The notes: generated from the letters alone by a model not told the origin. A stretch of DNA of 64,000 nucleotides from Actinomycetota bacterium (GCA_045805265.1 JBJMLO010000008.1:128846-192845); one strand, 5' to 3'; numbered from the stretch's first letter, positions 1-10,924 are shown. Translations and numbers: made by a program.

Positions 1-731
1 GCCCTGGCCGCGGCCGTGAGCCGAAGCCAGTTCCCGCCGAGCACCAGGGACTCCTGGTCCCGAGGGAGCCCGAGGGCCCGGACCTTCGCCAGCTCGACGC
101 CCGGGTGGAGCCACGGGCCGTCGGTCCCGAACAGCAGCTTGTGGGCCCCGCCCCGGCCGACGGCCTCGACGAGGAGATCGAAGCGTCGGATCCCCGAGGA
201 GTCCGCGTGCACGTTCGGGGCCCGCGCCAGGAGGTCGATCGTCTGCCGTTGCGCGCGCCAGTCGTCGGCGAAGCTCCCGAGGTGGGGGACGATGAACTGC
301 ACTTGCTCGTATTGCTGCGCCGCGAGGTCGACGGTGGCCACCTCCCCCATCACGTCGTAGAGCACCGGAAGCTCCAGCGACCCGGCCACCTCGCAGACTT
401 CACGGGTGATCCGGGAGTCGTGGCGGTGCAGCTTGATCCCGCACGCCCCCCAGCCCGTCACCGCCTCGGTCACCATCGCCCGGATCCGGCCGGCGTCCCG
501 TTTGGCGTCCACCATGGCGTAGCCGAAGAACCGGTCGGGCCGGGCGGCCACGATGCGGCCCACCTCCCGGTTGGCCCGGCGGTAGTCGGAGTTGAATGCC
601 GCGAACAGCACCGTCCGGCCGATCCCGGCCCGGGCGGCCCGCCGGAGGTAGGCCCCGAGGGGCGCGTCCGTGTCCCAGGGCCCGGTGAGGCCGTCCCCCT
701 GGCCTGCGTGACAGTGGCTGTCGACGATCAT
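1..731 (-). CDS. amidohydrolase-2 family metal-dependent hydrolase (partial; 3' end lies beyond the window start)
   Basis: Manual translation of the minus strand from the ATG at 731..729 gives MIVDSHCHAGQGDGLTGPWDTDAPLGAYLRRAARAGIGRTVLFAAFNSDYRRANREV...GIKLHRHDS...HADSSGIRRFDLLVEAV...LLFGTDGPWLHPG with no stop before nt 1. The MIVDSHCH start and the overall pattern are typical of TIM-barrel amidohydrolases. The ATG overlaps the stop of the upstream bioF-like gene (ATGA). It is absent from the ORF track because it has no stop inside the window. Confidence 0.6.
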   Translation of the reverse strand, partial: MIVDSHCHAGQGDGLTGPWDTDAPLGAYLRRAARAGIGRTVLFAAFNSDYRRANREVGRIVAARPDRFFGYAMVDAKRDAGRIRAMVTEAVTGWGACGIKLHRHDSRITREVCEVAGSLELPVLYDVMGEVATVDLAAQQYEQVQFIVPHLGSFADDWRAQRQTIDLLARAPNVHADSSGIRRFDLLVEAVGRGGAHKLLFGTDGPWLHPGVELAKVRALGLPRDQESLVLGGNWLRLTAAAR

Positions 732-1846
732 CCCGCGACCGCCCGCCTGCGGGCCCTCGGTTGGGCCGTCCGCCCGGCCCTCGGACGGGCTCGCCCCCCC
801 GAGGCCACCACGATCCCGAGCGCCTCGACCGTCCGGTCGATCTCGGCCTCGCGGTGACCGGCGGTGACGATGAACGACACCGCCAGCCCCCGGCCGCACC
901 TCGGCCGATGCAACACCGTGCGGACCCCGAGCTCGAGGAGGCCCCGGTGGGTGGCCTGGGGGTCGAGGCCGGGCTCCGACCGGACGGACTGGAGCGGGAA
1001 CAGGCCCTCCGAGAGGGGCACGCCGAGCGCCGAGGCGCCGGCGCGGAACCGGGTCACGAGCCGTGCGAGGCGCCGCCGGAGCGCGTCCCCCACCCGGGCG
1101 TTGGCTCCGAGGGCCCGGACGGCCGCGTTGAGATGGGCGTTCGAGGCCGGGCTGCAGTGGACCCGGGTCGCGCTCCTCGACTCGTATCGTCGAACCGCCG
1201 CCCGGCTGCCGGCCACGGCGGCGACCGGAACCCCCAGCCCCTTGGCGAGGGAGGCCACGACGATCAGACCCGCGTCCCCGACGCCGGTCCAGCGCGCGAC
1301 GCCGCCGCCTCCCCGGCCGTAGGGATGCCCGGGCGCCGGAGTTCCCAAGATGCCGAGGGCCTGCGTGTCGTCCACGACCACGGTGCCGGGCTGGAAGCGG
1401 GCGACCGCCAGGTAGTCACCGACGGGAGCCACGCCGCCGCAGCCGGGACACAGGCCGTCGGTCAGCACGAACACGGATCGGGGGTCGCCGGCCTCGGCCA
1501 GTGCCCGCCGAAGCGATGCCGGGTCGTGGTGTCGGAACCTCCTGACCTTCGCCCCGGCGCACCGCGCCCGTTCCGCGCCCCACGACGCGATCGGGTAGGT
1601 CCCCTCGTCCACCAGGATCGTCCTGGCCCCCATCGCGACGAACAGGTCCCAAAACGCGTGCAGAGTGGAGGGCGCCACGGTCGCCGCCGTCGTCCCGATG
1701 AGCCCGGCCACCCGGCTCCCCACCTCACGCGCCGCGGGCGCCTCGGCCAGCGCGGCCGGCCGGCCGGTCGTGAGCTCCGCCCACGGAGGCACGCGCTCGC
1801 CACCGTGCCGCATCCCGAGGTACAGGGAGGAAGTGAGGTCGATCAC
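728..1846 (-). CDS. bioF: 8-amino-7-oxononanoate synthase-like PLP-dependent alpha-oxoamine synthase (BioF family)
   Basis: Frame of track ORF 728..3283. DLTSSLYLG matches the BioF NFSSNDYLGL motif, SLAKGLG carries the PLP lysine, LVTRFRAGA matches E. coli BioF LITRFRAGV, and the C-terminal FIVTAGHREAEIDRTVEAL matches [21 protein letters not shown]. The start is set at the GTG at 1846, which overlaps the upstream gene's stop by 16 nt. No other start codon exists in this frame up to about 1980, so the N-terminus is uncertain. Confidence 0.7.
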   Translation of the reverse strand: MIDLTSSLYLGMRHGGERVPPWAELTTGRPAALAEAPAAREVGSRVAGLIGTTAATVAPSTLHAFWDLFVAMGARTILVDEGTYPIASWGAERARCAGAKVRRFRHHDPASLRRALAEAGDPRSVFVLTDGLCPGCGGVAPVGDYLAVARFQPGTVVVDDTQALGILGTPAPGHPYGRGGGGVARWTGVGDAGLIVVASLAKGLGVPVAAVAGSRAAVRRYESRSATRVHCSPASNAHLNAAVRALGANARVGDALRRRLARLVTRFRAGASALGVPLSEGLFPLQSVRSEPGLDPQATHRGLLELGVRTVLHRPRCGRGLAVSFIVTAGHREAEIDRTVEALGIVVASGGRARPRAGRTAQPRARRRAVAG

Positions 1847-1860
1847 GGCTCGCGCCGCGA

Positions 1861-3384
1861 TCAGGTCCGCACACCCACCCGCGACCCGTCGGACGAGACC
1901 TGCTTCGGGAGCCGCTTGCGGAGCAGCACGGCCGGGATCGTGGCGTTCACCTGCCCCGTCACGGTGCTCGCGGCCAGGTCCACGCCGGTCGCGGCGCGAT
2001 AGGCATGGAGGTAACCCTGGACCTCCGGGCGCCAGTACCGGGCCCAGTTCGCCGCGCTCTCGGGGTGGATCTGGCCCGTCCAGGCCCCGTATCGGATCGA
2101 GAGAAGGATCTTCTCCCCGAAGATCGCGAGGTCCCGGAAGTGCAGGATCGACGTGTCCGTCCACGCCTGCAGGCTCTTCATGGTCTCGACCGAGTCCATC
2201 CAGGGCTCCGGGTAGTCGACCATGATCCGCCGGGGCAGGAACTCCCGCATCTCCGGGCGGGCCAGGATCCACTGCTGCATCAGGAACTCCTGCCGCGCGG
2301 TCCACGGGAGGTCGCCATACTGGTTGTGGGCGCCCTGAGTCAGCTGGAGATGGACCTCCCGTAGGCCGTTCAGCACGGGGAACCCGTCGGCGACCACCGT
2401 CGTGTCGTCGTCCTCCTTGTAGAAGATCGAGCACAGCATCAGGAGCGTGTGGAACGCCTCGAGGAACCGGGACCGCGAGTCCGCGCCCCGGATCGCGGGG
2501 ATCGCCTTTCCGATGAGCTTCAGGCCGTACTCGTGGTCGTACTCGTAGGCCCGCCGGGGGATCGTGAGCCGGTGCTCCTCGTCCTGCACCCAGCCCCACA
2601 GCAGGTTGTTCAGTCCGCGGAGCGGGTCGATCTCCAGCATCGCGAGCGGGTCGCGCTCCGCGGGGCCCCGCCGGTTCTGGAACCGCCAGCTCATGGCGTT
2701 CGTGGTCTGGACCAACATGCCTTCCTCGAGCCAGTAGTTCCAGAGCAATTCGAGCAGACACGGCCGGGTGAGCTTCGAGCGGAGGATCCCGTAGCACTGG
2801 CGGGCTCCGTACGCCCTCCGGCCGTGGATCGGGACGTCGCCGAGCTTCAGCTGGACGACGTCGTGCAGGTACGGGATCGTTCGGTGCTGGCCCACGGCCC
2901 GGAGGTACCCGAGCCACTGGGAGTCGACATCGGGGGCCGACGCCGTCGGCCGGAGCAGCCGGAGCTCCTCCTCCTCGGCGACCCCCACGTCCGAGGTCAG
3001 CACTCCGAAGTCGGCGTCCTCGAACCTCGTGTTGACCGAGATGCCGAGGTTGTCGTCGGACTCGCCGATCACCACTCCGCAGTGCGCCATCATGAAGACC
3101 TCGGTGGCGATCTTCAGCAGCCGGTACGGCTCCACATCCGGGAACGGGAGCTGGCGCTTCGCCCGGATGTGGTCGAACTGTCCCTGTGCGCGCGGCGGCG
3201 GCGAGCCACACATGATCGGCTCGATGAACGCCGCGTAGTTCTCGAAGGCCAGCGCCTCCGCGCTGTTGCGGATCACGACCCACAGCGCTTGGTCCGGCGT
3301 GGGCGTCACGTCGGCCCGGCGCATCGTCACCTCCACGGGCTGCCGCGGCCGGCCGCCCGGCGCCTTGAACATCGCCTTAGTCAT
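1861..3384 (-). CDS. hypothetical protein, 507 aa, Trp/Tyr/Phe-rich globular, no family recognised
   Basis: Track ORF 1861..3966 trimmed to the internal ATG (MTKAMFKAPGG...), which is preceded by GGAGG. Composition is protein-like throughout and local GC is lower than the surroundings. The sequence upstream of this ATG in the same frame is low-complexity G/R/A. Confidence 0.7.
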   Translation of the reverse strand: MTKAMFKAPGGRPRQPVEVTMRRADVTPTPDQALWVVIRNSAEALAFENYAAFIEPIMCGSPPPRAQGQFDHIRAKRQLPFPDVEPYRLLKIATEVFMMAHCGVVIGESDDNLGISVNTRFEDADFGVLTSDVGVAEEEELRLLRPTASAPDVDSQWLGYLRAVGQHRTIPYLHDVVQLKLGDVPIHGRRAYGARQCYGILRSKLTRPCLLELLWNYWLEEGMLVQTTNAMSWRFQNRRGPAERDPLAMLEIDPLRGLNNLLWGWVQDEEHRLTIPRRAYEYDHEYGLKLIGKAIPAIRGADSRSRFLEAFHTLLMLCSIFYKEDDDTTVVADGFPVLNGLREVHLQLTQGAHNQYGDLPWTARQEFLMQQWILARPEMREFLPRRIMVDYPEPWMDSVETMKSLQAWTDTSILHFRDLAIFGEKILLSIRYGAWTGQIHPESAANWARYWRPEVQGYLHAYRAATGVDLAASTVTGQVNATIPAVLLRKRLPKQVSSDGSRVGVRT

Positions 3385-3422
3385 GTGCCTCTCCTTCCTC
3401 CGTCCCTCGCGGGCTCCGCCCG

Positions 3423-4508
3423 CTACTTCCGGCGCAGGTGCGCTTCGACGACGTACGTCCCGGTCGGCACCGCCCGGGCGTCGATCCGGACCCGGGACCC
3501 CACGTCCTCGAGCAGGCCGCCCGCCTCGACGGTCCACTGGAGCTCGTAGCCGGCCGGGATCGGGCGCGGGAGCCTCGCCTCGGCGAGGACCAGCCCGGCG
3601 GAGTCGGGCTCGCTGACGTCGATGCGCTCTACGAACTTCTGCTCCGCCTCGCTCAGGACCTCGAGGGTCGCTTTGTGGTGCTCCTCCGCCTCCGCGAGCG
3701 CCTCCTCCGCCAGGCGCAGCTCGGCGTGCGCCCGGCGTTCCGCCTCCGGCGCCTCGACGAGCGCCCGCTCGGCTGCCTCGAACTCCTTCCTGGCCTCCTG
3801 GATCTCGGCCGGGCTGGCCCCGGGCGCCTTCGCCTGCAGCGCGTCGTGGGCGGCGGCCAGTTGCCGGTCGAGTCGCTCCTCTCTGGCGCGCAGCCCTCTG
3901 AGCTTCGCCGGATCGGGGGCCGCGGCCTTGAGCTCCGCCTCCGCGTCCCGAAGCCCCTTCTGCCACTCGGCGAGCTCCACCAGGTGCGCGTCGAGTGCCT
4001 CCTGTTGCTCACGAAGGGTTCCCGCCGAGTTCGCGAGCGCCGTCTTCTGCGCACCGGCCGGAGCAGCGGTCGCGGCGGAGTCGGTGTGCTTCGCGGACGT
4101 GGCCACCACCGTGGTGGCCCTCTTCGCGCTCGCGTTCCACTGCCTCGCCGCCTTGACGACCGATGCGAGGGCGTCTCGGGCGCGCTTGATCGAGTCGTGC
4201 GTCGCCTCGGCCTGGGCGAGCTCCCTCGTCACGGCATCGTGAGCCTCGCGGGTCTCGTCGTATTTCGCCTGGAGGGCCTTCGCATCGGCGTCGGAGAGCT
4301 CCACGCCCTCGGCCAGGACCCGGAATCGGGCCTCCGCGTTCCTCCACTGGCGCTGAGCAGCTCCGTTGAGCCCGGTCGTCGAATCGGCCCGCTTCCGCGC
4401 CGTCGCCTGTTCCTTCCTCCGTTCCTCCAGGATCGCCTCCGCCGCCTCGACCTCGTCGATGGCGAGGGCGAGCAGCTCCTCCGGCGTCCTGGTGATCGTG
4501 CCGGCCAT
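3423..4508 (-). CDS. coiled-coil protein with a small C-terminal beta-rich domain (hypothetical)
   Basis: Track ORF 3423..4508 has an ATG with a GGAGG site 7 nt upstream. A long Ala/Glu/Arg/Lys-rich heptad-like region (AEAELKAAAP..., EARKEFEAAERALVEAPEAERRAHAELRLAEEALAEAEEHHKATLEVLSEAEQKF) is followed by ...PAGYELQWTVEAGGLLEDVGSRVRIDARAVPTGTYVVEAHLRRK. Confidence 0.75.
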   Translation of the reverse strand: MAGTITRTPEELLALAIDEVEAAEAILEERRKEQATARKRADSTTGLNGAAQRQWRNAEARFRVLAEGVELSDADAKALQAKYDETREAHDAVTRELAQAEATHDSIKRARDALASVVKAARQWNASAKRATTVVATSAKHTDSAATAAPAGAQKTALANSAGTLREQQEALDAHLVELAEWQKGLRDAEAELKAAAPDPAKLRGLRAREERLDRQLAAAHDALQAKAPGASPAEIQEARKEFEAAERALVEAPEAERRAHAELRLAEEALAEAEEHHKATLEVLSEAEQKFVERIDVSEPDSAGLVLAEARLPRPIPAGYELQWTVEAGGLLEDVGSRVRIDARAVPTGTYVVEAHLRRK

Positions 4509-4525
4509 CTCGCTACCTCCTCACC

Positions 4526-5996
4526 TCAGGGCCGGGATCCAGCTCTCCGGCCGATCCGCACCATCGGGCGGGCCCCCGCCGGCCGCCCGCCGTGGATCCC
4601 GGGCGGCGACCTCCTGACCGTCCCCCCGCCTCCGCCCGGCGGGATCGCTCTCCGCCGGACGAAGGCACGGCCGTACGGGCCGACCAGACCCGGGGCCGGC
4701 TGAGCGCCCGCCCGCGCCGCCAGCGCGGCGTTTGCCCGGAGCGTGCTCTCGAGCGCCCAGTAGGAGATCAGCCGTCCCAGCAAGCGGTCCTCGCCCTCCG
4801 GCGTGATCAGTCCCCGGGCCCTCGCCTGGCCCACCACGGCGAAGGCGAGCGCTGGGCGGGTCCGGCGGACCGCCCGGGGGTCTGCGGTCCACTGCGCGTA
4901 CAGGCGGATCAGCCGATCCGGTGTGCGGTCCGCGGTCCGGACGGCATCGCCGACGGTGCGTCCCCGGAGCGTGCCGGGACGGTGTCCCAGGACCAGTCGG
5001 ACGAACGCCGGCATGGTCGCCAGCAGGGCCTGGAGCACCCGACGGCGCTGCGCCGGCAGTCCCTCTGCCGGATAGAACGAGGTCCAGACGCTCGCCAGAC
5101 GGCGCCACTGCCGGTCGGGGTACAGGGCTTCGCCGAACGCGCATGAGACATGGACCCGAATCCACGAGAAGGGGTGGGGGTCGTCCGCCGACATCCGGAA
5201 CACGAACGCGCGCGGCAGACTCACCAATCCGATGAGGCCCATGGTCGACGAGACGCCGACCCGGGCGATGGAGAACAGGTCCGCGACGACCTCCGAGATC
5301 CATCGCTCCCACATGCGCCATGCGAGCCGCTCCGGCCCCGCCGCCGCGAGGCCGGCCCGGTGGATCTCCGGGCGGAGCGATTCGACCAGCCCGAGGAGCG
5401 CAGCCGCTTGGTGACCGGCCTCGTGGATCAGGGAGGAGGAAATCCCGTATGTAGCCGATCATGCGCTCCCGAGGGATGCGGATGATCGACACAGGGTTCT
5501 CACCTCCCCCGGGCAGGCGGGTCCGCGCACGGCGGATGGCGCCGCCCAGCCCCCGATGCAGGTAGCACACGGCCGGTGGCGCGCGGAAGTACCCCCCGGG
5601 CAGGTCGAGGGCGTCCTGGACCGCCACGTCGAGACCCGACAGCCACAGCCCGGTCTCGTGTTCGCTTCGTTGCGTGATCGCGTCGGAGAACAGATCCAGC
5701 TGCGACAACGCCAGGTTGAACCGGAGCCGGAGGAACGTGTACCGCCGCTGCTGTTCGCTCGGCCGGGCGCCGCGCCCGTGGCCCCGCAGCCACCTGAGGT
5801 ACCGGAGGATCTGGCGTCGAAGCGTCCGCCTCCCGCCGATCAGGTACAGCTCGATGGCCGTCTGGGCCTCGGGCGACAGCGCCGCGGCGGGCAGCATCGT
5901 CTCCTGGAGGGCAAACGGCTTCACCCGATCCAGCCGAGCCAGCAGCGCGCGGGCCTCGCGCTCCAGCATCCACGTGGACAGGCCGTCGGTGGACAC
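4526..5996 (-). pseudogene. putative HExxH zinc metallopeptidase (about 490 aa) interrupted by a single frameshift near 5445-5460
   Basis: Track ORF 4521..5996 is protein-like only for its first ~185 aa (MSTDGLSTWMLEREARALL...IRIPRERMIGYI). Translating the second frame upstream of track ORF 4526..5314 gives ...SATYGISSSLIHEAGHQAAALLGLVESLRPEIHRAGLAAAGPERLAWRMWERWISEVVADLF..., which contains an HEAGH motif. The two frames abut at about 5447-5459. The combined length equals one ~490-aa protein. Confidence 0.5.
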
Positions 5997-5999
5997 GCG

Positions 6000-7166
6000 T
6001 CAGGCCCCGTAGACGATGATCCGGTTGCCCTGACGGACCCACGTGCCGGACCCCTGACCCCCGCCGGACCCGTCCGCCGGCCCCCCGCCGCCCCAGGTCG
6101 ACGGGCCGCCGTACCAGCCGCCGTACCCGGGCCCGTACCAGCGCCGGCGCGCGGACGGCGCGTACCCGTAGCCCGCGCGGCGCCGGGCGTAGGGGGCGCC
6201 CCGGTAGGCGTACCTCGGCATCCGGCGTCCGTAGCCCCGCCGGTAGGGGGCGCCGACCCGACGGGAGGGGCTCCGGTAGCCGTACCGGCCGAGCATCGCC
6301 GGCCGGCGAACGCCGACTCCCATCGGACGCCGCGGCACGACCGGACCGCCCAGGGAGCGGACCATCGACCGGTAGATGCCCGGCGCGTGGGAGCGCGCCG
6401 CTGCCGCCACCGCGGCGCGGGCCACCGCCTGGGGGCTGATGCCGGGCCGCGGCCGGGCCAGCGCCGCGTTCCTCGCCGACGCGGCAGCGAGGTTGACGAA
6501 GCGCCGGGCCACCTCGAACTCGGCCGCCTCGGCCGGCATGGCCTCCAGCTCGACCTCGAACAGGCCGCCCGCCATGGATCCGAGCTTGCTGCCGAGTGCG
6601 GTGCCGATCCCCGGCGCGATCATCGACCCGAGCGCCCCGCCCACGACCGGCAGGGCCTTCTTCGCCACGCTCTTCAGCACGCCGCCAAGGGCCCGCCCGA
6701 TCGGTGACTTGATGAAGCCGCCGACCCCGCGCGAGATGCGCTTGAAGACGTTGCCGAGGAACTGCTCGAGCTCCTGTTCGTTGTTGATCTCCAGCAGCTC
6801 GGAGGCCAGCTCGACCTCCTGGGCGCCGGAGAGCGGCGACTCCAGCTCGCCGCCGAGGATCGACCCGAGGATCCCGCCGAGGAACTGCTCGGTCTCGAAC
6901 TCGCCGCCGCCCTCGAACTCGCCTCCCTCGAACTCGCCGCCTCCCTCGAACTCGCCGCCGCCCTCGAACTCTCCTCCCTCGAACTCGCCGCCGCCCTCGA
7001 ATTCGCCGCCCTCGAACTCGCCGCCGCCCTCGAACTCGCCTCCCTCGAACTCGCCGCCTCCCTCGAACTCGCCGCCCTCGAACTCTCCTCCCTCAAACTC
7101 TCCGCCCTCGAACTCGCCTCCCTCGAACTCCCCGAATTCCGTCAGCTCCGCACCCTGCATGCCCAT
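6000..7166 (-). CDS. GEFEGG-repeat protein 1: acidic N-terminal tandem repeats, Gly-zipper-like amphipathic core, Arg/Tyr/Gly-rich C-terminal tail (hypothetical)
   Basis: Track ORF 6000..7166; the start is preceded by GGAGGAGG. The N-terminus holds about 18 copies of GEFEGG(G). The core reads ELASELLEINNEQELEQFLGNVF...ALPVVGGALGSMIAPGIGTALGSKLGSMAGGLF...EFEVARRFV...IYRS. The tail reads RRPMGVGVRRPAMLGRYGYRSPSRRVGAPYRRGYGRRMPRYAYRGAPYARRRAGYGYAPSARRRWYGPGYGGWYGG...RQGNRIIVYGA. Confidence 0.75.
   Translation of the reverse strand: MGMQGAELTEFGEFEGGEFEGGEFEGGEFEGGEFEGGGEFEGGEFEGGGEFEGGEFEGGGEFEGGEFEGGGEFEGGGEFEGGEFEGGGEFETEQFLGGILGSILGGELESPLSGAQEVELASELLEINNEQELEQFLGNVFKRISRGVGGFIKSPIGRALGGVLKSVAKKALPVVGGALGSMIAPGIGTALGSKLGSMAGGLFEVELEAMPAEAAEFEVARRFVNLAAASARNAALARPRPGISPQAVARAAVAAAARSHAPGIYRSMVRSLGGPVVPRRPMGVGVRRPAMLGRYGYRSPSRRVGAPYRRGYGRRMPRYAYRGAPYARRRAGYGYAPSARRRWYGPGYGGWYGGPSTWGGGGPADGSGGGQGSGTWVRQGNRIIVYGA
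6890..7135 (-). repeat. tandem 18-21 bp coding repeat array (about 18 units) encoding the GEFEGG(G) repeats
   Basis: The plus strand reads gaactcgccgccgccctcgaactcgcctccctc... repeated head-to-tail. Its antisense frame produces the spurious SNSPP-repeat ORF 6376..7590. Confidence 0.8.
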
Positions 7167-7195
7167 GGGCCTCCTCCTCTCTCCCGGTGACCTCG

Positions 7196-7873
7196 TCAGG
7201 AGCCGTACAGCACGATCGTTCGACCTCTCCGGATCCAGCGGCCCCCACGCGGCCAGGCGCGCGTCGAGCGACCCTGGAGCCGCGGCAGGAGACCGGGCGC
7301 GTAGATCCGCGCCGAGCTGCGGGCGGCCAGCCGCGCCACCGCGGAGGGCGGCAGGTGCGCCGGCGCGGCCACCGCCCGCCGGGCCGCGGCGCTCACGAAC
7401 CGCACGAGCTGGCGGGCGATCTCGAACTCGCGGTCCTCGCCCGAGAGGCCCTCGAGCTCCAAGCCGAGCAGCGTGCCTGCCGCTGCCCCGGCCCTGGCGC
7501 CGATGTCCCCGTACCCGCCCACGCGCTCGCCGATGGCCCGGCCCACGACCGGCAAGGCCTGCTTCGCGGCGCTCTGAAGGCTGTCCTTGAGGATGGTCCC
7601 GAGCGCCCGGCCGGTGTCCGAGCGGATGAAGTTCCCCGCGGCCCGCCCGACCGCCCCGAACACGTTCCCGAGGAACTGCTCGAGCTCCTGCTCGCTCGAC
7701 ACCTCGAGGAGCTCCGAGGCCAGCTCGATCTCCTGCATCTCGCCGAGCGGGCTCTCCAGCTCGGCGGGCGACTCGAACTCGCCGACTTCGAACTCAGAGC
7801 CCTCGAACTCGCCGGGGCCCTCGAACTCTCCGACCTGCCCGTGCTCGAGTTGCGTCCGTCCGATGTCGTGCAT
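7196..7873 (-). CDS. GEFEGG-repeat protein 2 (shorter paralog of 6000..7166)
   Basis: Track ORF 7196..7942 trimmed to the internal ATG (MHDIGRTQLEHGQVGEFEGPGEFEGSEFEVGEFES...), which has GGAGG 5 nt upstream. It shares ELASELLE..SEQELEQFLGNVF, ALPVVG, EFEIARQLV, IYAPG and the C-terminal R.GRTIVLYGS with gene 1. It lies 23 nt upstream of gene 1. Confidence 0.75.
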   Translation of the reverse strand: MHDIGRTQLEHGQVGEFEGPGEFEGSEFEVGEFESPAELESPLGEMQEIELASELLEVSSEQELEQFLGNVFGAVGRAAGNFIRSDTGRALGTILKDSLQSAAKQALPVVGRAIGERVGGYGDIGARAGAAAGTLLGLELEGLSGEDREFEIARQLVRFVSAAARRAVAAPAHLPPSAVARLAARSSARIYAPGLLPRLQGRSTRAWPRGGRWIRRGRTIVLYGS

Positions 7874-7980: not shown

Positions 7981-7997
7981 TGCACGTTCCGTGCCGG
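7981..7997 (-). promoter_or_regulatory. candidate sigma-54-type -24/-12 element (CGGCACGGAACGTGCAC on the minus strand) about 110 nt upstream of the GEFEGG-repeat operon
   Basis: The GG-N10-GC spacing is conserved, with 2 mismatches to TGGCACG-N4-TTGCA. It is 14/17 identical to the element upstream of the rpoN-like gene. It is the only such match in the 275-bp gap between the rpoN-like gene and the first GEFEGG gene. Confidence 0.4.
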
Positions 7998-8146
7998 GCT
8001 GCCTCGGCGATCGACGTCGGGGGGGGACGCGAACGACGCTTCGGCTCGGGGGATCCGCGCCTCGCCAGGACGAAGCGACCTTCGCCTCATTTGGAGCGGG
8101 CCGGCGGCGCACGACGGGGACGGGGCATTTCCGGTGACGCCTGGGC

Positions 8147-9457
8147 TCAGCGATACGTGCTGGGAAGGATCCGGAGGCGGCTGCGGTACTTGGCGACCGT
8201 CCGTCTCGCGACGCGGTGACCGGCTCGGCGGAGCCGCTCGGACAGCTCCGCGTCGCTGAGGGGCCGGTCCTCCGCGGCGATGATGTCCCGAAGGCGGGCG
8301 CGCATCCCGAGCGAGCCGTCGAAGAACGCGCCGAAGGGGACAACGCGGCGCGACGGCAGGAGGACGTACTTCTCGGCAGTCGCGCGGCTCACCGTGGATG
8401 GACTGAGACCGAGTTCCCCCGCGACATCGGCGCGGGTCAGGCGCAGGTCGGTGGCCGGATCGCCGGACATCAGGTCCGGCCGCCGGTCCGCAAGGTGCTC
8501 GGTGATCCTCCGCATCGTCGACCAGCGCTCCCGGAGCCGGGCCAGCAGGAAGTCGCCCCTCCTGACCAGCTCGCACATCTTCCGGTCGCTGCGGGCGACG
8601 CCGCGGAACGCCGGGTCCACGCGGAGGGGGAGACGTCGCTCCTCGAGGACCTCGACTTGAAACGTCCCCGGCCGGTCGGCGCGGCCCAGGACCGCGACGT
8701 CCGGCTGGACCGGCGGGGCCGTCACGCCGGCTCCCGATTCGTCGTCCACGTCGGGACGCGGGAGGAGCTCCCGCCGGATGTACTCGCGGGCGTCCGCGAC
8801 GTCGGCAACGGACACGCCGAGCAGCCGCGCGATGGAGGCCGTGGCTCCCCGGGCGAGCGACTCGAGGTGATCGGCGACGACCGCGCGGGCGACGGGATGG
8901 AAGTTGCCTTCGCCGGCCAGCCGATCGATCTGCAGCAGGAGGCAGTCTCGGAGGTCCCTCGCGGCCACGCCCACGGGACCGGTCTCCCGCAGGGTCCGGA
9001 CGACGCGCTCGACGGACGCCGGGTCTGCGCCGGCGATGCGCGCCAGCTCCTGGATCCCTTCCCTGAGGTATCCCCTGTCGTCCAGGCTGGCGACGACGGC
9101 GGCGGCGATCCCGGCGTCCCGCGCCGGCAGCACGAGCATGAGCTCCCGGAGCAGCCGCTCGGCGAACGATTCCGTCGAGACGGCCGCCGGCCCGGTCGGG
9201 GGGTCGTCCGGGTCGCGGAGACTCGCCCGGGAGGGCCGGCTCGTGCAGTAGATGCAGGGTGGGTCGGCGGGGAGTCCGCAGCCGCCGCACACGTGCACCT
9301 CGTCCTCGACCAGCGCGGGGTTCTCGGAGAGCTCGCGGGCCACGGTCTGTTCCAGCTCGATCCCCGAGAGGGCCAGGAGGCTCGCGTAGGCGACGAGCGC
9401 GGGCGAGGGAGACATCCGGAGCTCCTGCGTCACGTCGAGCGCGACCGTGAGCGACAC
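8147..9457 (-). CDS. rpoN: RNA polymerase sigma-54 factor (RpoN) homolog, 436 aa, with a CxxC...CxxC insertion in region II
   Basis: Frame of track ORF 8147..10300. The C-terminus ADVAGELGLSPSTVSRATAEKYVLLPSRRVVPFGAFFDGS...PLSDAELSERLRRAGHRVARRTVAKYRSRLRILP aligns with the E. coli sigma-54 HTH and RpoN box (ARRTVAKYRE). The core-binding region ETGPVGVAARDLRDCLLLQI is near-identical to E. coli DPVGVAARDLRDCLLIQL. Region I reads VSLTVALDVTQELRMSPSPALVAYASLLALSGIELEQTVARELSENPALVE. The start is set at the GTG 14 codons upstream of the first ATG, with AGGAGG 6 nt upstream. The insertion HVCGGCGLPADPPCIYC follows region I. Confidence 0.85.
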   Translation of the reverse strand: MSLTVALDVTQELRMSPSPALVAYASLLALSGIELEQTVARELSENPALVEDEVHVCGGCGLPADPPCIYCTSRPSRASLRDPDDPPTGPAAVSTESFAERLLRELMLVLPARDAGIAAAVVASLDDRGYLREGIQELARIAGADPASVERVVRTLRETGPVGVAARDLRDCLLLQIDRLAGEGNFHPVARAVVADHLESLARGATASIARLLGVSVADVADAREYIRRELLPRPDVDDESGAGVTAPPVQPDVAVLGRADRPGTFQVEVLEERRLPLRVDPAFRGVARSDRKMCELVRRGDFLLARLRERWSTMRRITEHLADRRPDLMSGDPATDLRLTRADVAGELGLSPSTVSRATAEKYVLLPSRRVVPFGAFFDGSLGMRARLRDIIAAEDRPLSDAELSERLRRAGHRVARRTVAKYRSRLRILPSTYR

Positions 9458-9504: not shown

Positions 9505-9521
9505 TGCAAGGTCCGTGCCAA
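9505..9521 (-). promoter_or_regulatory. canonical sigma-54 -24/-12 promoter element (TGGCACG-GACC-TTGCA) directly upstream of the rpoN-like gene
   Basis: The minus strand reads ...GGGGT TGGCACG GACC TTGCA CTGACCGTGGGTTGAGGGACACACTCTCGTCGGACAGGAGGGATTCG GTG. This is a perfect match to TGGCACG-N4-TTGCW. The GC dinucleotide lies about 48 nt upstream of the GTG start, leaving a ~35-nt leader with the AGGAGG site. Confidence 0.55.
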
Positions 9522-9607: not shown

Positions 9608-10924
9608 ATGACGCTTCGTCGCATGGTCCGGTTGGCGCTCCCGGCGATGGTGGGGAGTGCGCTCGTGCTGGGGGGTGGACTGCGGGCCTGGGCGGCCTCC
9701 GGCGACCTCGACGGCAGCTTCGGGGGTGGTGACGGGATCGCGACGCAGGACTTCGGCGGCGCAAGTGCCTCCCACGGCCATGCGGCCCTGCTGCAGCCCG
9801 ACGGCAAGATCGTCGCGGCCGGGTCGACGGTGCTGCCCTCCCGTTTCGACGCCGACTTCGGCGTCGCCAGGTTCCTGTCCAACGGAGACCCGGATCCCGC
9901 CTTCGGGACGGGCGGCGCCGTCTCGACCAACTTCCTGGGGGGGCACGATGTCGCCCGCGCGATCCTCCGGCAGAGCGACGGGAAGCTCGTGGTGGTCGGC
10001 GACGCGTGCGAGCTCGACGACTCGAGCGCCTGCGGGTTCGCTGTCGTGCGGTACCTGCCCTCCGGGAAGCGGGACCTGTCCTTCAGCGGCGATGGCCGAG
10101 AGCGCATCGAGTTCCCTGGGTACGACGACCTCACCGGCTTCAACGGCGCGCTGATGTCCGGCGGAAAGATCCTGATCGTCGGCGACGGGAACAAGACCGC
10201 CGACGGCCAGTCCGACATGGTGCTCGCCCGGCTGAACGGGAACGGCTCGCTCGACACGACGTTCAGCGGAGACGGGCGGCAGACCCTCGACCCGTCGCAC
10301 GGCGGCGACGACGGCATGTCCGGCGTTGCGATCCAGAGCGACGGCAAGATCGTGGGGTCCGGGTGGGCCTACAACGGCAGCGACGGCCGGTGGTGCGTGG
10401 TCCGCCTCAAGCCGAACGGCACCCTCGACACCACCTTCAGCGGCGACGGCGTCGTGATCAAGAACGTGGTGCCTGGCCAGGACGACTACTCCAACGACCT
10501 CATCGTGTTGCCCTCGTCGCGCATCCTGGCGATCGGCCGGGCGGTGAACGCGGTGGGGGTCTCCACCGGGGGCGACGTCGTCCTCCTCCGGCTGACGTCC
10601 GGGGGCGTCCCGGACACGTCGTTCGGCGCCGGCGGCCTGCGGAAGGCAGACTTCGGGGGCGACGAGGAGCCCGTCAGCGTCGCCCGCGACAGCACCGGGC
10701 GGATCGTGATGTCCGGCCGGGTCGGGAACGGCACGGGGTTCGGCGTGTTCCGGTTCACGGCGGCCGGAGCTCCCGACACCACCTTCGCCGGCGACGGACT
10801 GGCCGTGGAGGGCGGCGGCGCGCTGGCCGCCGGCATCGCGGTCCAGGGGAACGACCGTCCGGTGGCGGTGGGCAGCACGTCCCAGGGTCCGGGCGATCTC
10901 GAGGTCGCCAGGTTCCTGGCCTGA
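9608..10924 (+). CDS. secreted beta-propeller repeat protein (delta-60 / SBBP-like repeats, repeated LDxxFGxxG motifs)
   Basis: Track ORF 9608..10924. The ATG is preceded by GGAGGGG. The N-terminal signal peptide is MTLRRMVRLALPAMVGSALVLGGGLRAWAASG. Repeats of the form DG.LD.SF..DG...... / G.IV..G occur throughout. Confidence 0.8.
   Translation: MTLRRMVRLALPAMVGSALVLGGGLRAWAASGDLDGSFGGGDGIATQDFGGASASHGHAALLQPDGKIVAAGSTVLPSRFDADFGVARFLSNGDPDPAFGTGGAVSTNFLGGHDVARAILRQSDGKLVVVGDACELDDSSACGFAVVRYLPSGKRDLSFSGDGRERIEFPGYDDLTGFNGALMSGGKILIVGDGNKTADGQSDMVLARLNGNGSLDTTFSGDGRQTLDPSHGGDDGMSGVAIQSDGKIVGSGWAYNGSDGRWCVVRLKPNGTLDTTFSGDGVVIKNVVPGQDDYSNDLIVLPSSRILAIGRAVNAVGVSTGGDVVLLRLTSGGVPDTSFGAGGLRKADFGGDEEPVSVARDSTGRIVMSGRVGNGTGFGVFRFTAAGAPDTTFAGDGLAVEGGGALAAGIAVQGNDRPVAVGSTSQGPGDLEVARFLA

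Follow-up and report, generated by a model that had tools for sequence, protein, structure and literature searches.

A conserved gene block with predicted sigma-54 control in an Actinomycetota genome and its possible role in envelope breach or remodelling

A stretch of 64,000 nt from an Actinomycetota bacterium (GCA_045805265.1, JBJMLO010000008.1:128846-192845; the whole of it is hereafter called the window) carries seven consecutive, tightly packed minus-strand genes behind a gene for a sigma-54 homolog (rpoN). A preliminary description of this DNA had proposed that these genes form one sigma-54-driven unit that is novel and largely self-contained, and this proposal is strongly supported overall. 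The operon is very probably driven by a regulatory cassette consisting of a bacterial enhancer-binding protein (bEBP), its enhancers and a sigma-54 promoter, with the Actinomycetota copies bringing their own sigma-54. For the whole, the reading that we favour, with a confidence that falls a little short of even, is that these genes are the effector operon of a sigma-54 cassette that is conserved, moves horizontally and serves gated breach or remodelling of the cell envelope. The features concerned are as follows:

9505..9520, minus strand: predicted -24/-12 promoter of rpoN, TGGCACGGACCTTGCA, 12/12 match
8147..9457, minus strand: module sigma-54, 436 aa, with the Pfam domains AID, CBD and DBD
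8071..8084, unstranded: distal enhancer dyad CGAAGCGACCTTCG, CGAAG-N4-CTTCG, candidate bEBP site
8030..8043, unstranded: proximal enhancer dyad CGAACGACGCTTCG, one mismatch
7981..7996, minus strand: predicted -24/-12 promoter of the operon, CGGCACGGAACGTGCA, 10/12 match
7196..7873, minus strand: GEF protein of type A (GEFEGG-2), 225 aa
6000..7166, minus strand: GEF protein of type B (GEFEGG-1), 388 aa
4526..5996, minus strand: zincin-like protein with the pattern HExxH...SEIxAD, ~488 aa after frame restoration
5447..5450, minus strand: 4-nt insertion ATAC after GGC TAC, candidate recoding site
3423..4508, minus strand: coiled-coil protein, 361 aa
1861..3384, minus strand: orphan protein, 507 aa, highly conserved, all-alpha
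728..1846, minus strand: BioF-like divergent fold-type-I pyridoxal phosphate (PLP) enzyme, 372 aa
1..731, minus strand: Amidohydro_2 metal hydrolase (Pfam PF04909), 243 of 305 aa inside the window

Conservation of the block was examined by gene-neighbourhood analysis, using one genome per species and comparing the window proteins by tblastn. This is the check that the preliminary description had itself suggested, and the outcome that would have refuted the proposal, genes never found together elsewhere, did not occur. The genes were found to be co-localised in all 73 related loci, which represent about ten phyla: Actinomycetota, Acidobacteriota, Myxococcota and 'delta' lineages, Bacteroidota, Calditrichia, Methylomirabilis, a Clostridia metagenome-assembled genome (MAG) and Verrucomicrobia, with additional module contexts in Gammaproteobacteria, Planctomycetota and Alphaproteobacteria. 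Cultured carriers among the Actinomycetota include Streptomyces, Kribbella, Actinomadura, Rhizocola and Modestobacter. At every locus with enough flanking sequence, one or two GEF genes, the HExxH gene and the orphan gene occur in the same order and on the same strand; the BioF-like gene, the Amidohydro_2 gene and a convergent bEBP gene are present at most non-Streptomyces loci. Phyla with a housekeeping sigma-54 bring just the bEBP gene and the operon, while non-Streptomyces Actinomycetota add rpoN, which adjoins the block in 20/20 of their loci as against 1/24 loci of other phyla.

The Streptomyces copies (L023-L026, L031-L033, L035, L038-L042, L063, L064 and L070) are reduced to GEF, HExxH and orphan genes, the last with a fused Ig-like N-terminus, and this trio is followed by genes for an M74-like murein endopeptidase with a peptidoglycan-binding motif and a large LuxR-type regulator. 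In none of them (0/15 each) was rpoN, the bEBP gene or the BioF-like gene found; Amidohydro_2 was found in 4/15. In one of these copies (L035) the module lies beside sdhCDAB. Carriers are soil taxa, and the cassette, patchily distributed across phyla, seems to move horizontally; the genes around it have ordinary metabolic roles and do not form a defence island. No description of the module was found in literature searches. Its regulatory logic is of a known kind, to which the carriage of rpoN into a sigma-54-less phylum is a new twist, and its content is new, as the effector core fits no described family, fold or system.

Candidate promoters were scored against the consensus TGGCACG-N4-TTGCW (12 positions). 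The operon site in the window (7996-7981) lies 123 nt 5' of the GEFEGG-2 ATG. A site matching at least 10 of the 12 positions is present in 33 of 53 non-Streptomyces loci, with 9/12 matches in 10 more, and in relatives it is placed 55-330 nt 5' of the first GEF gene. It is missing from all 16 Streptomyces loci (score ≤8), as are rpoN and the bEBP gene. When the upstream regions were aligned, two CGAAG-N4-CTTCG dyads emerged, separated by about 42 bp and typically located 57 and 99 nt 5' of the -24 element. Of the 33 loci examined, which range from Actinomycetota to Verrucomicrobia, 30 have at least one dyad and 20 have both. The distal dyad of the window is the only exact CGAAG-N4-CTTCG copy in its 64 kb, where 0.05 would be expected from shuffled sequences. 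Because the same enhancer is conserved from Actinomycetota to Verrucomicrobia, the DNA specificity of the bEBP would seem to have been preserved across phyla.

The bEBP gene lies just past position 1 of the window, convergent with the operon, as seen in an identical Logan contig (L004). In relatives, the protein starts with an unassigned domain of ~125 aa, followed by an AAA+ domain for sigma-54 interaction that contains GAFTGA, by a lid and by a Fis-type helix-turn-helix (HTH). A receiver domain was considered for the N-terminus and dropped, there being no Response_reg match (Pfam, E≤0.1). The gene is present in 22 of 23 Actinomycetota and 12 of 13 Acidobacteriota loci. Together, the predicted promoter, the candidate enhancers and the bEBP correspond to the standard architecture of a bEBP-dependent promoter, and they are conserved together with the operon.

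The identification of the 436-aa protein as a sigma-54 homolog, already made in the preliminary description, was upheld by all three Pfam domains, each over its cutoff: region I or activator-interacting domain (AID, PF00309; 29.8 bits, cutoff 23.8), core-binding domain (CBD, PF04963; 113.1 bits) and DNA-binding domain (DBD, PF04552; 78.0 bits). It aligns with E. coli RpoN in region I and the HTH, and the RpoN box ARRTVAKYR is identical. The protein is divergent, scoring 202.7 with the NCBIfam rpoN model TIGR02395 (under the cutoff of 277.35), and is labelled 'hypothetical protein' by NCBI. Acidic region II is replaced by a four-cysteine, zinc-ribbon-like insertion (CxxC...CxxC, residues 57-71; 9245-9289, minus strand), which is found in most actinobacterial module sigma factors of the alignment. 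Proteins of soil MAGs with 59-68% identity form a clade with it, and its nearest relatives beyond this module clade are RpoN proteins of Chloroflexota (38-41% identity over the full length), which hints at Chloroflexota as the donor lineage of the gene.

Translation of rpoN starts at a GTG at 9457 that is preceded by the ribosome-binding site AGGAGGG. About 50 nt 5' of this start is a perfect 12/12 promoter match (9520-9505, minus strand), and equivalent -24/-12 sites precede rpoN in at least nine other loci (L001, L005, L006, L007, L009, L011, L071, L072 and L075). Because rpoN sits behind its own perfect -24/-12 site, it is probably positively autoregulated. The window thus holds cognate -24/-12 promoters for this sigma factor, and a fragment of the bEBP, with GAFTGA seen in relatives, is found just outside it. 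Actinobacteria have been stated to lack sigma-54 (PMC3162934), and a 2025 survey that noted rpoN-like genes in Modestobacter, Alloactinosynnema and Citricoccus held that the phylum 'effectively lacks a functional RpoN' (PMC12316311). The data presented here argue that the actinobacterial rpoN-like genes belong to a functional, dedicated cassette. As a separate observation, the gene divergent from rpoN (9608-10924, plus strand) translates to a 438-aa product that has a hydrophobic, signal-like segment at its N-terminus and contains repeated units of the type G-x-x-D-x-x-F-G; the gene is not kept beside the module in other loci.

The window has a G+C content of 72%, and analysis of G+C at third codon positions by frame indicates unbroken minus-strand coding from about 9457 to position 1. 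The gene order given in the preliminary description is borne out, and several of its details need correction. Intergenic gaps listed there as 23, 3, 12, 38, about -16 and -4 nt measure 29, 3, 17, 38, +14 and -4 nt. Translational coupling, proposed for the whole operon, is retained for two of the six junctions (the 3-nt gap and the 4-nt ATGA overlap) and withdrawn for the remaining four; the genes for GEFEGG-2, GEFEGG-1, the coiled-coil protein and the orphan each have a strong GGAGG-type ribosome-binding site of their own. The HEAGH motif is present in the gene described as a metalloprotease, which does not have a single intact frame: a 4-nt insertion breaks the 491-aa open reading frame that starts at 5996. 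The range of 728-7873 holds six genes and not seven, as the amidohydrolase gene sits at 731-1 and is cut by the window edge. Nor is the block self-contained within that range, since the upstream rpoN and the convergent bEBP gene beyond position 1 are also needed. Of the earlier interpretation, a sigma-54-driven novel module is strongly supported; general coupling, completeness and the suggested small-molecule step (see below) are not supported. A scan of the window found no sigma-70-like promoters and no minus-strand terminator-like sites inside the block.

The GEF proteins occur as two types: type A begins MHDIxRTQLE, and type B begins MSxYE and often has a long R/Y/G-rich tail. Both share six elements in order. 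An acidic, aromatic, glycine-rich (E/F/G) head whose sequence is not conserved ends at a boundary motif, roughly SP(L/F)SE, which is followed by a conserved helix (ELAxELLEVxxExELxxFLG), a cationic amphipathic stretch running into GxxxG repeats and ending LPxxGxAxG, a second helix (EFExARxFVRxA) and an invariant C-terminus, G-R/K-W-x-R-x-G-x-x-I-x-L-x-G-x (the GRWxRRGxxIxLxG tag). In GEFEGG-1, the head comprises 15 GEFE units, which correspond to a tandem repeat of 15/18 nt in the DNA (6894-7134). The charge of this protein is about -35 in the head (residues 1-105), +3 to +6 in windows of the core and about +25 in the tail, and residues 136-195 are cationic or hydrophobic with GxxxG runs and a hydrophobic moment of up to 0.72. 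Pfam scans of individual members gave sub-threshold hits only, with the recurring theme of glycine zippers and the frog, cecropin, melittin and latarcin peptide families. A profile of the family retrieved 1570 proteins, many of which are tandem fusions of two GEF domains.

For GEFEGG-1, GEFEGG-2, the HExxH protein and the orphan, searches of Pfam, NCBIfam, PADLOC and PDB sequences gave nothing significant, and matches of GEF, HExxH and orphan proteins to PHROGs are marginal (E ~1e-3) and look like weak tape-measure-like noise. In the HExxH protein, residues H190, E191, H194, E234 and D238 are invariant in 51 homologs, giving the gluzincin pattern HExxH...SEIxAD. With motif-level evidence only, we regard it as a new zincin-like protein and a putative metalloprotease; having no Pfam, NCBIfam or PDB relative and no significant PHROG match, it falls into no described peptidase family and has no solved structure.

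Further genes are inserted between the BioF-like and amidohydrolase genes in other phyla. They encode PG_binding_1 proteins, a trypsin combined with PG_binding_1, OmpA-family proteins and M20 peptidases; one protein with the architecture PG_binding_1-VanY-PG_binding_1-3D matches endolysin PHROGs at 1e-30. Signal-less peptidoglycan hydrolases are part of the unit in L012, L020, L035, L059, L090 and L091. None of the accessory proteins has a signal peptide, and several start with acidic-aromatic leaders (e.g. EAEPFEAYAEFDE; EAEPFE) that resemble GEF heads (L090, 15307-19909; L091, 15712-16809; L012; L059). At another locus (L092, 12188-12604 and 12757-13569), a peptidoglycan-binding protein and a small protein share the GEF tag at their C-terminal ends, as GRW(V/I)RRGxx(I/V)xLxG, which suggests that the C-terminal tag may be a modular recognition or sorting signal.

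These features can be combined in the following model of the effectors, which taken by itself is doubtful. The GEF proteins would be charge-masked proproteins, consisting of an acidic head, a cationic amphipathic glycine-zipper core and a C-terminal tag. The co-encoded zincin would cut off the acidic head, and the all-alpha orphan, together with an Ig-like adaptor (fused to it or located on the coiled-coil protein), would work alongside the zincin, either as an enzyme or in assembly. Once freed, the core would perturb the cytoplasmic membrane, after which, in many lineages, the co-operonic signal-less endolysin-like hydrolases could gain access to the wall. The result would be breach or remodelling of the envelope under tight gating, as autolysis or release or as stress-related or developmental wall remodelling, with the PLP enzyme and the amidohydrolase as accessories. 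An intracellular starting point is argued because the module occurs in both monoderm and diderm phyla. Promoters of the sigma-54 type have very low basal activity, which would suit harmful products and would account for the retention of the sigma factor in hosts that otherwise lack one.

Among the alternatives, the one that survives best, although we consider it unlikely, is a protective or structural stress module, in which non-toxic amphipathic or disordered GEF proteins would act on membranes, by stabilising or repairing them, or would form condensates when the cell faces envelope or desiccation stress; the zincin and the orphan would carry out their turnover or assembly. In its logic this would be analogous to the phage-shock (psp) system, which is controlled by sigma-54 and PspF. 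Control by sigma-54 and a bEBP, as in psp, and the soil habitat of the carriers are in keeping with such a role, and the acidic low-complexity head and R/Y/G-rich basic tail of GEFEGG-1 have the composition that is typical for proteins forming coacervates. No lytic enzyme is encoded by the window copy, and some GEF members are labelled 'DUF697 family' by JGI, a membrane-protein family; this label is backed by no Pfam hit, and no similarity to PspA/IM30 or LEA proteins was found. The recurrence of signal-less endolysin-like hydrolases in the same operons also fits poorly with protection, and is accommodated by the favoured reading of envelope breach or remodelling.

The best conserved protein of the module is the orphan (46-80% identity across phyla). 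It has at least 4987 homologs at E≤1e-3 in a 90%-clustered collection, and none of the best 120 homologs listed (59-100% identity) has an informative name or a Pfam domain; in a 50%-clustered library it falls into 1117 clusters, mostly from soil. An AlphaFold2 (AF2) model, built from an alignment of the 50%-cluster representatives (pLDDT 86), is all-alpha and had no structural neighbour in a comparison that excluded annotated AlphaFold models (afdb50). Invariant acidic and histidine residues, which include E281xxH284, E309xxH312 and D326/D327, suggest by inference that the orphan is an enzyme, and the two ExxH motifs raise the idea of a diiron site. A terpene synthase-like reading of DDxxD/DTE motifs was rejected, as the motifs are ~32 residues apart and not ~140 and there was no fold match. 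The slot between the HExxH and orphan genes is lineage-variable. In the window it is occupied by the coiled-coil protein, which has a beta-rich C-terminal segment of ~70 aa; tblastn found relatives only in L005, L006 and L009 (27-28% identity), and NCBIfam and PADLOC gave weak SMC-type coiled-coil noise only. Other loci have, at this position, the Ig-like extension fused to the orphan. Homology between this extension and the beta segment was considered and set aside: BLAST and phmmer searches were empty, and the resemblance is one of position and residue pattern.

The last two genes had been taken to point to a small-molecule or lipid-modifying step, a proposal which rests on the most dispensable genes of the module, as they are missing from most Streptomyces copies. 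The naming of the first as a BioF-like alpha-oxoamine synthase is partly justified. Equivalents of the PLP-related residues Lys236 and Asp204 (E. coli BioF numbering) are invariant in 40 members of the family, and in all 40 two histidines typical of alpha-oxoamine synthases are lost (His133 to Tyr, His207 to Gln). The protein matches NCBIfam bioF with an E-value of 2.4e-20 and 72.6 bits, below the cutoff of 426.45, with weak matches also to serine palmitoyltransferase and Kbl, and has no Pfam hit even at E≤10. The amidohydrolase scores 58.4 bits with PF04909 (cutoff 26.4) and starts MIVDSHCHAG with an HxH metal motif; the complete protein of 305 aa is found on the identical Logan contig (L004).

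These enzymes take part in a second alternative, which is close to that proposal and distinctly unlikely: a pathway to a peptide-derived small molecule resembling those of ribosomally synthesised and post-translationally modified peptides (RiPPs), in which the zincin would excise GEF repeats or the GEF C-terminus and the orphan (as a metalloenzyme), PLP enzyme, amidohydrolase and M20 peptidase would tailor the product. The repetitive N-terminal units and invariant extreme C-terminus of the GEF proteins, the co-occurrence of a protease with PLP, amidohydrolase and M20 enzymes and the invariant acidic and histidine residues of the orphan would be expected of such a pathway. The presumed precursors, however, are 200-575 aa long with a conserved helical domain of ~150 aa, and their repeats differ between lineages. 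Scans with Pfam and NCBIfam found no known RiPP maturase, RiPP recognition element (RRE) or transporter, and both the loss of the two histidines and the frequent absence of the PLP enzyme and amidohydrolase genes in Streptomyces speak against it.

Under the favoured reading the zincin is required for maturation of the GEF proteins, and its gene is interrupted in this genome. The insertion ATAC (5450-5447), nine codons before HEAGH, places this motif out of frame with the open reading frame from 5996, and the frame that holds HEAGH lacks a start codon. Uninterrupted relatives have GGC TAC GGG ATC (G Y G I) at this point; the sequence is GGC TAC [ATAC] GGG in the window and GGC TAC [TTAC] GGG in L005 and L009. 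A metagenome scan added three contigs with GGC TAT [TTAC] GGG and nine without an insertion. TTAC is thus carried by L005, L009, L078, L081 and L085, which with the window makes six independent sequences from different samples and assemblers, compared with 10 uninterrupted relatives at this site. On both sides of the insertion the protein sequence is conserved, with 82% and 73-79% identity for the two halves. Read in the zero frame, the codon at the site is TTA or ATA in every case, and no sense codons are rarer in the window (0.08 and 0.25 per 1000). After one skipped base the next codon is always UAC, so that all six sequences have the pattern UAY-N-UAC: a rare A-site codon and matching take-off and landing codons, with both flanking frames kept.

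Based on these observations, the insertion is a candidate programmed recoding site, with the full-length product predicted. Two readings fit: a +1 shift, which would give GYYGI, and a +4 hop of peptidyl-tRNA-Tyr from UAY to UAC, which would give GYGI, the same as in the uninterrupted relatives. A hairpin of 15-16 bp (GUGUCGAUCAUCCGC...GCGCAUGAUCGGC; 5455-5500, minus strand) is predicted, the 3' arm of which ends at the take-off codon (z -1.9 to -4.1). The same hairpin is also present in uninterrupted homologs such as L006, and in relatives it makes use of the rare codon ATT. For the effector model, recoding at a rare ATA/TTA codon would mean that in this lineage synthesis of the zincin is subject to an added translational gate.

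The gene could instead be a pseudogene in a module that is decaying in this genome, with the 4-nt insertion as a fixed lesion. The HExxH frame is after all disrupted, and lesions occur in other copies as well, including several Nanopore MAGs. We rate this explanation lower still than the peptide pathway. A pseudogene is less likely than recoding because the interruption recurs at the same site with the flanking frames maintained; a decaying gene would also not be expected to show the fixed choice of codons at and after the interruption, and all other genes of the operon are intact. Frame breaks elsewhere in the HExxH gene (L003/L008, L072 and L074-L076) were set apart as probable lesions of single strains or Nanopore errors that have nothing to do with the conserved site. 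For example, L003/L008 (~2935) and L002 (~7500) are near-identical Thermoanaerobaculia MAG contigs, in one of which a 1-nt deletion splits the gene; this is a strain-level lesion or an assembly error.

Several points weigh against the reading of a gated envelope effector. The GEF, HExxH and orphan proteins share no homology with any characterised protein and their effector function is inferred; the site at which the zincin would cleave the GEF proteins is predicted to be near the conserved SP(L/F)SE boundary. The likeness of GEF proteins to antimicrobial peptides and glycine zippers is compositional and lies under every Pfam threshold. Unlike holins, they have no transmembrane helices, only an amphipathic glycine-zipper stretch with a mean hydrophobicity of at most 0.41. 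The window copy lacks a peptidoglycan hydrolase, the 4-nt insertion could signal that the zincin of this lineage is inactive, and the role of the orphan, for all its conservation, is unexplained by the model. On the regulatory side, the bEBP of the present genome is known as a C-terminal fragment only, and no CGAAG dyad was found within 300 nt of the rpoN promoter, which leaves autoregulation through the same bEBP unproven.

Two further explanations fare worse than those above. An anti-phage abortive-infection or suicide module, in which the bEBP would sense infection and the products would kill the cell, is very unlikely: a tightly off promoter type, apparent mobility, patchy distribution and candidate membrane-active and wall-lytic products would suit it, yet no PADLOC model was matched beyond coiled-coil noise, the neighbours are metabolic genes and not a defence island, and conservation is unusually high for defence genes. 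Fortuitous adjacency of unrelated genes has practically no chance of being correct, having been refuted by the neighbourhood analysis, in which order and strand are kept in 73 loci of about ten phyla together with a conserved promoter and enhancer.

The favoured reading of a sigma-54 effector cassette has a wider form, which as a whole we think unlikely: a pan-phylum gated protein-effector system in which a sigma-54/bEBP switch, with its own sigma factor in a sigma-54-less phylum, would drive tagged or leadered proproteins and signal-less hydrolases that are matured or delivered by a zincin and a protein of new fold. Such a system could provide a holin-independent membrane route or a self-lysis device, and in one lineage it would be gated by a tRNA-Tyr hop, tying output to rare-tRNA supply. 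Whatever the effectors do, sigma-54 in Actinobacteria becomes directly testable, as rpoN, the bEBP gene, enhancers and promoters travel together in many actinobacterial genomes, among them those of carriers in culture (Kribbella, Modestobacter and Rhizocola). In high-GC hosts the cassette could find use as an expression switch that is naturally orthogonal. With its three invariant proteins outside described families, the block is a sizeable body of conserved 'dark matter' to which a defined regulator gives access. Its association with signal-less peptidoglycan hydrolases suggests that bacteria may have a new way to breach or remodel their own envelope, and the 4-nt interruption at TTA/ATA is a candidate for cellular hungry-codon recoding in actinomycetes.

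Like the precursors of dermaseptin-, cecropin- and latarcin-type peptides, GEF proteins have an acidic head and a cationic amphipathic core and would need a processing protease; in contrast to these host-defence precursors, to which their likeness is compositional and sub-threshold, they are bacterial and larger, lack a signal peptide and have extra helices and the C-terminal tag. Many module copies, like phage holin-endolysin cassettes, pair signal-less wall hydrolases with small glycine-rich membrane-seeking proteins, but the module has no transmembrane holin or phage genes, is under predicted sigma-54 control and has as invariant partners a zincin and a 500-aa protein of new fold. The BioF-like protein has its best NCBIfam matches in BioF, Kbl and serine palmitoyltransferase and keeps the PLP lysine and aspartate; it differs from alpha-oxoamine synthases in scoring about six-fold under the cutoffs, in having Tyr for the stacking His and Gln for the O3'-binding His, and in having no Pfam Aminotran_1_2 match.

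Comparable cases of recoding include the +1 frameshifting of RF2 and the hopping of T4 gene 60. The closest precedent for the HExxH site comes from the Streptomyces phage phiHau3, where a UUA codon triggers translational bypassing in the terminase gene (PMC10732093). The two are alike in a rare 'hungry' A-site codon, a short non-coding block, matching UAY...UAC codons and predicted RNA structure; the HExxH gene, known here from sequence alone, is cellular, its gap is only 4 nt and one variant has AUA instead of UUA.

With respect to regulation, the module sigma-54 shares with the housekeeping RpoN of Chloroflexota the same three domains and the RpoN box at 38-41% identity, and differs from it in lying under the NCBIfam cutoff, in its label as a hypothetical protein and in being tied to one operon. 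Dedicated operons controlled by sigma-54 and a bEBP are known from pspF-pspABCDE and rtcR-rtcBA, in which the bEBP gene lies beside its single target operon. The module resembles psp and rtc in its neighbouring bEBP gene, in paired dyads ~60-100 nt 5' of a TGGCACG-N4-TTGCW promoter and in a predicted off state until the bEBP is active. Its sensor domain and core effectors, in contrast, are unrelated to theirs, and in Actinomycetota the module brings its own rpoN, with the four-cysteine insertion and behind a -24/-12 site.

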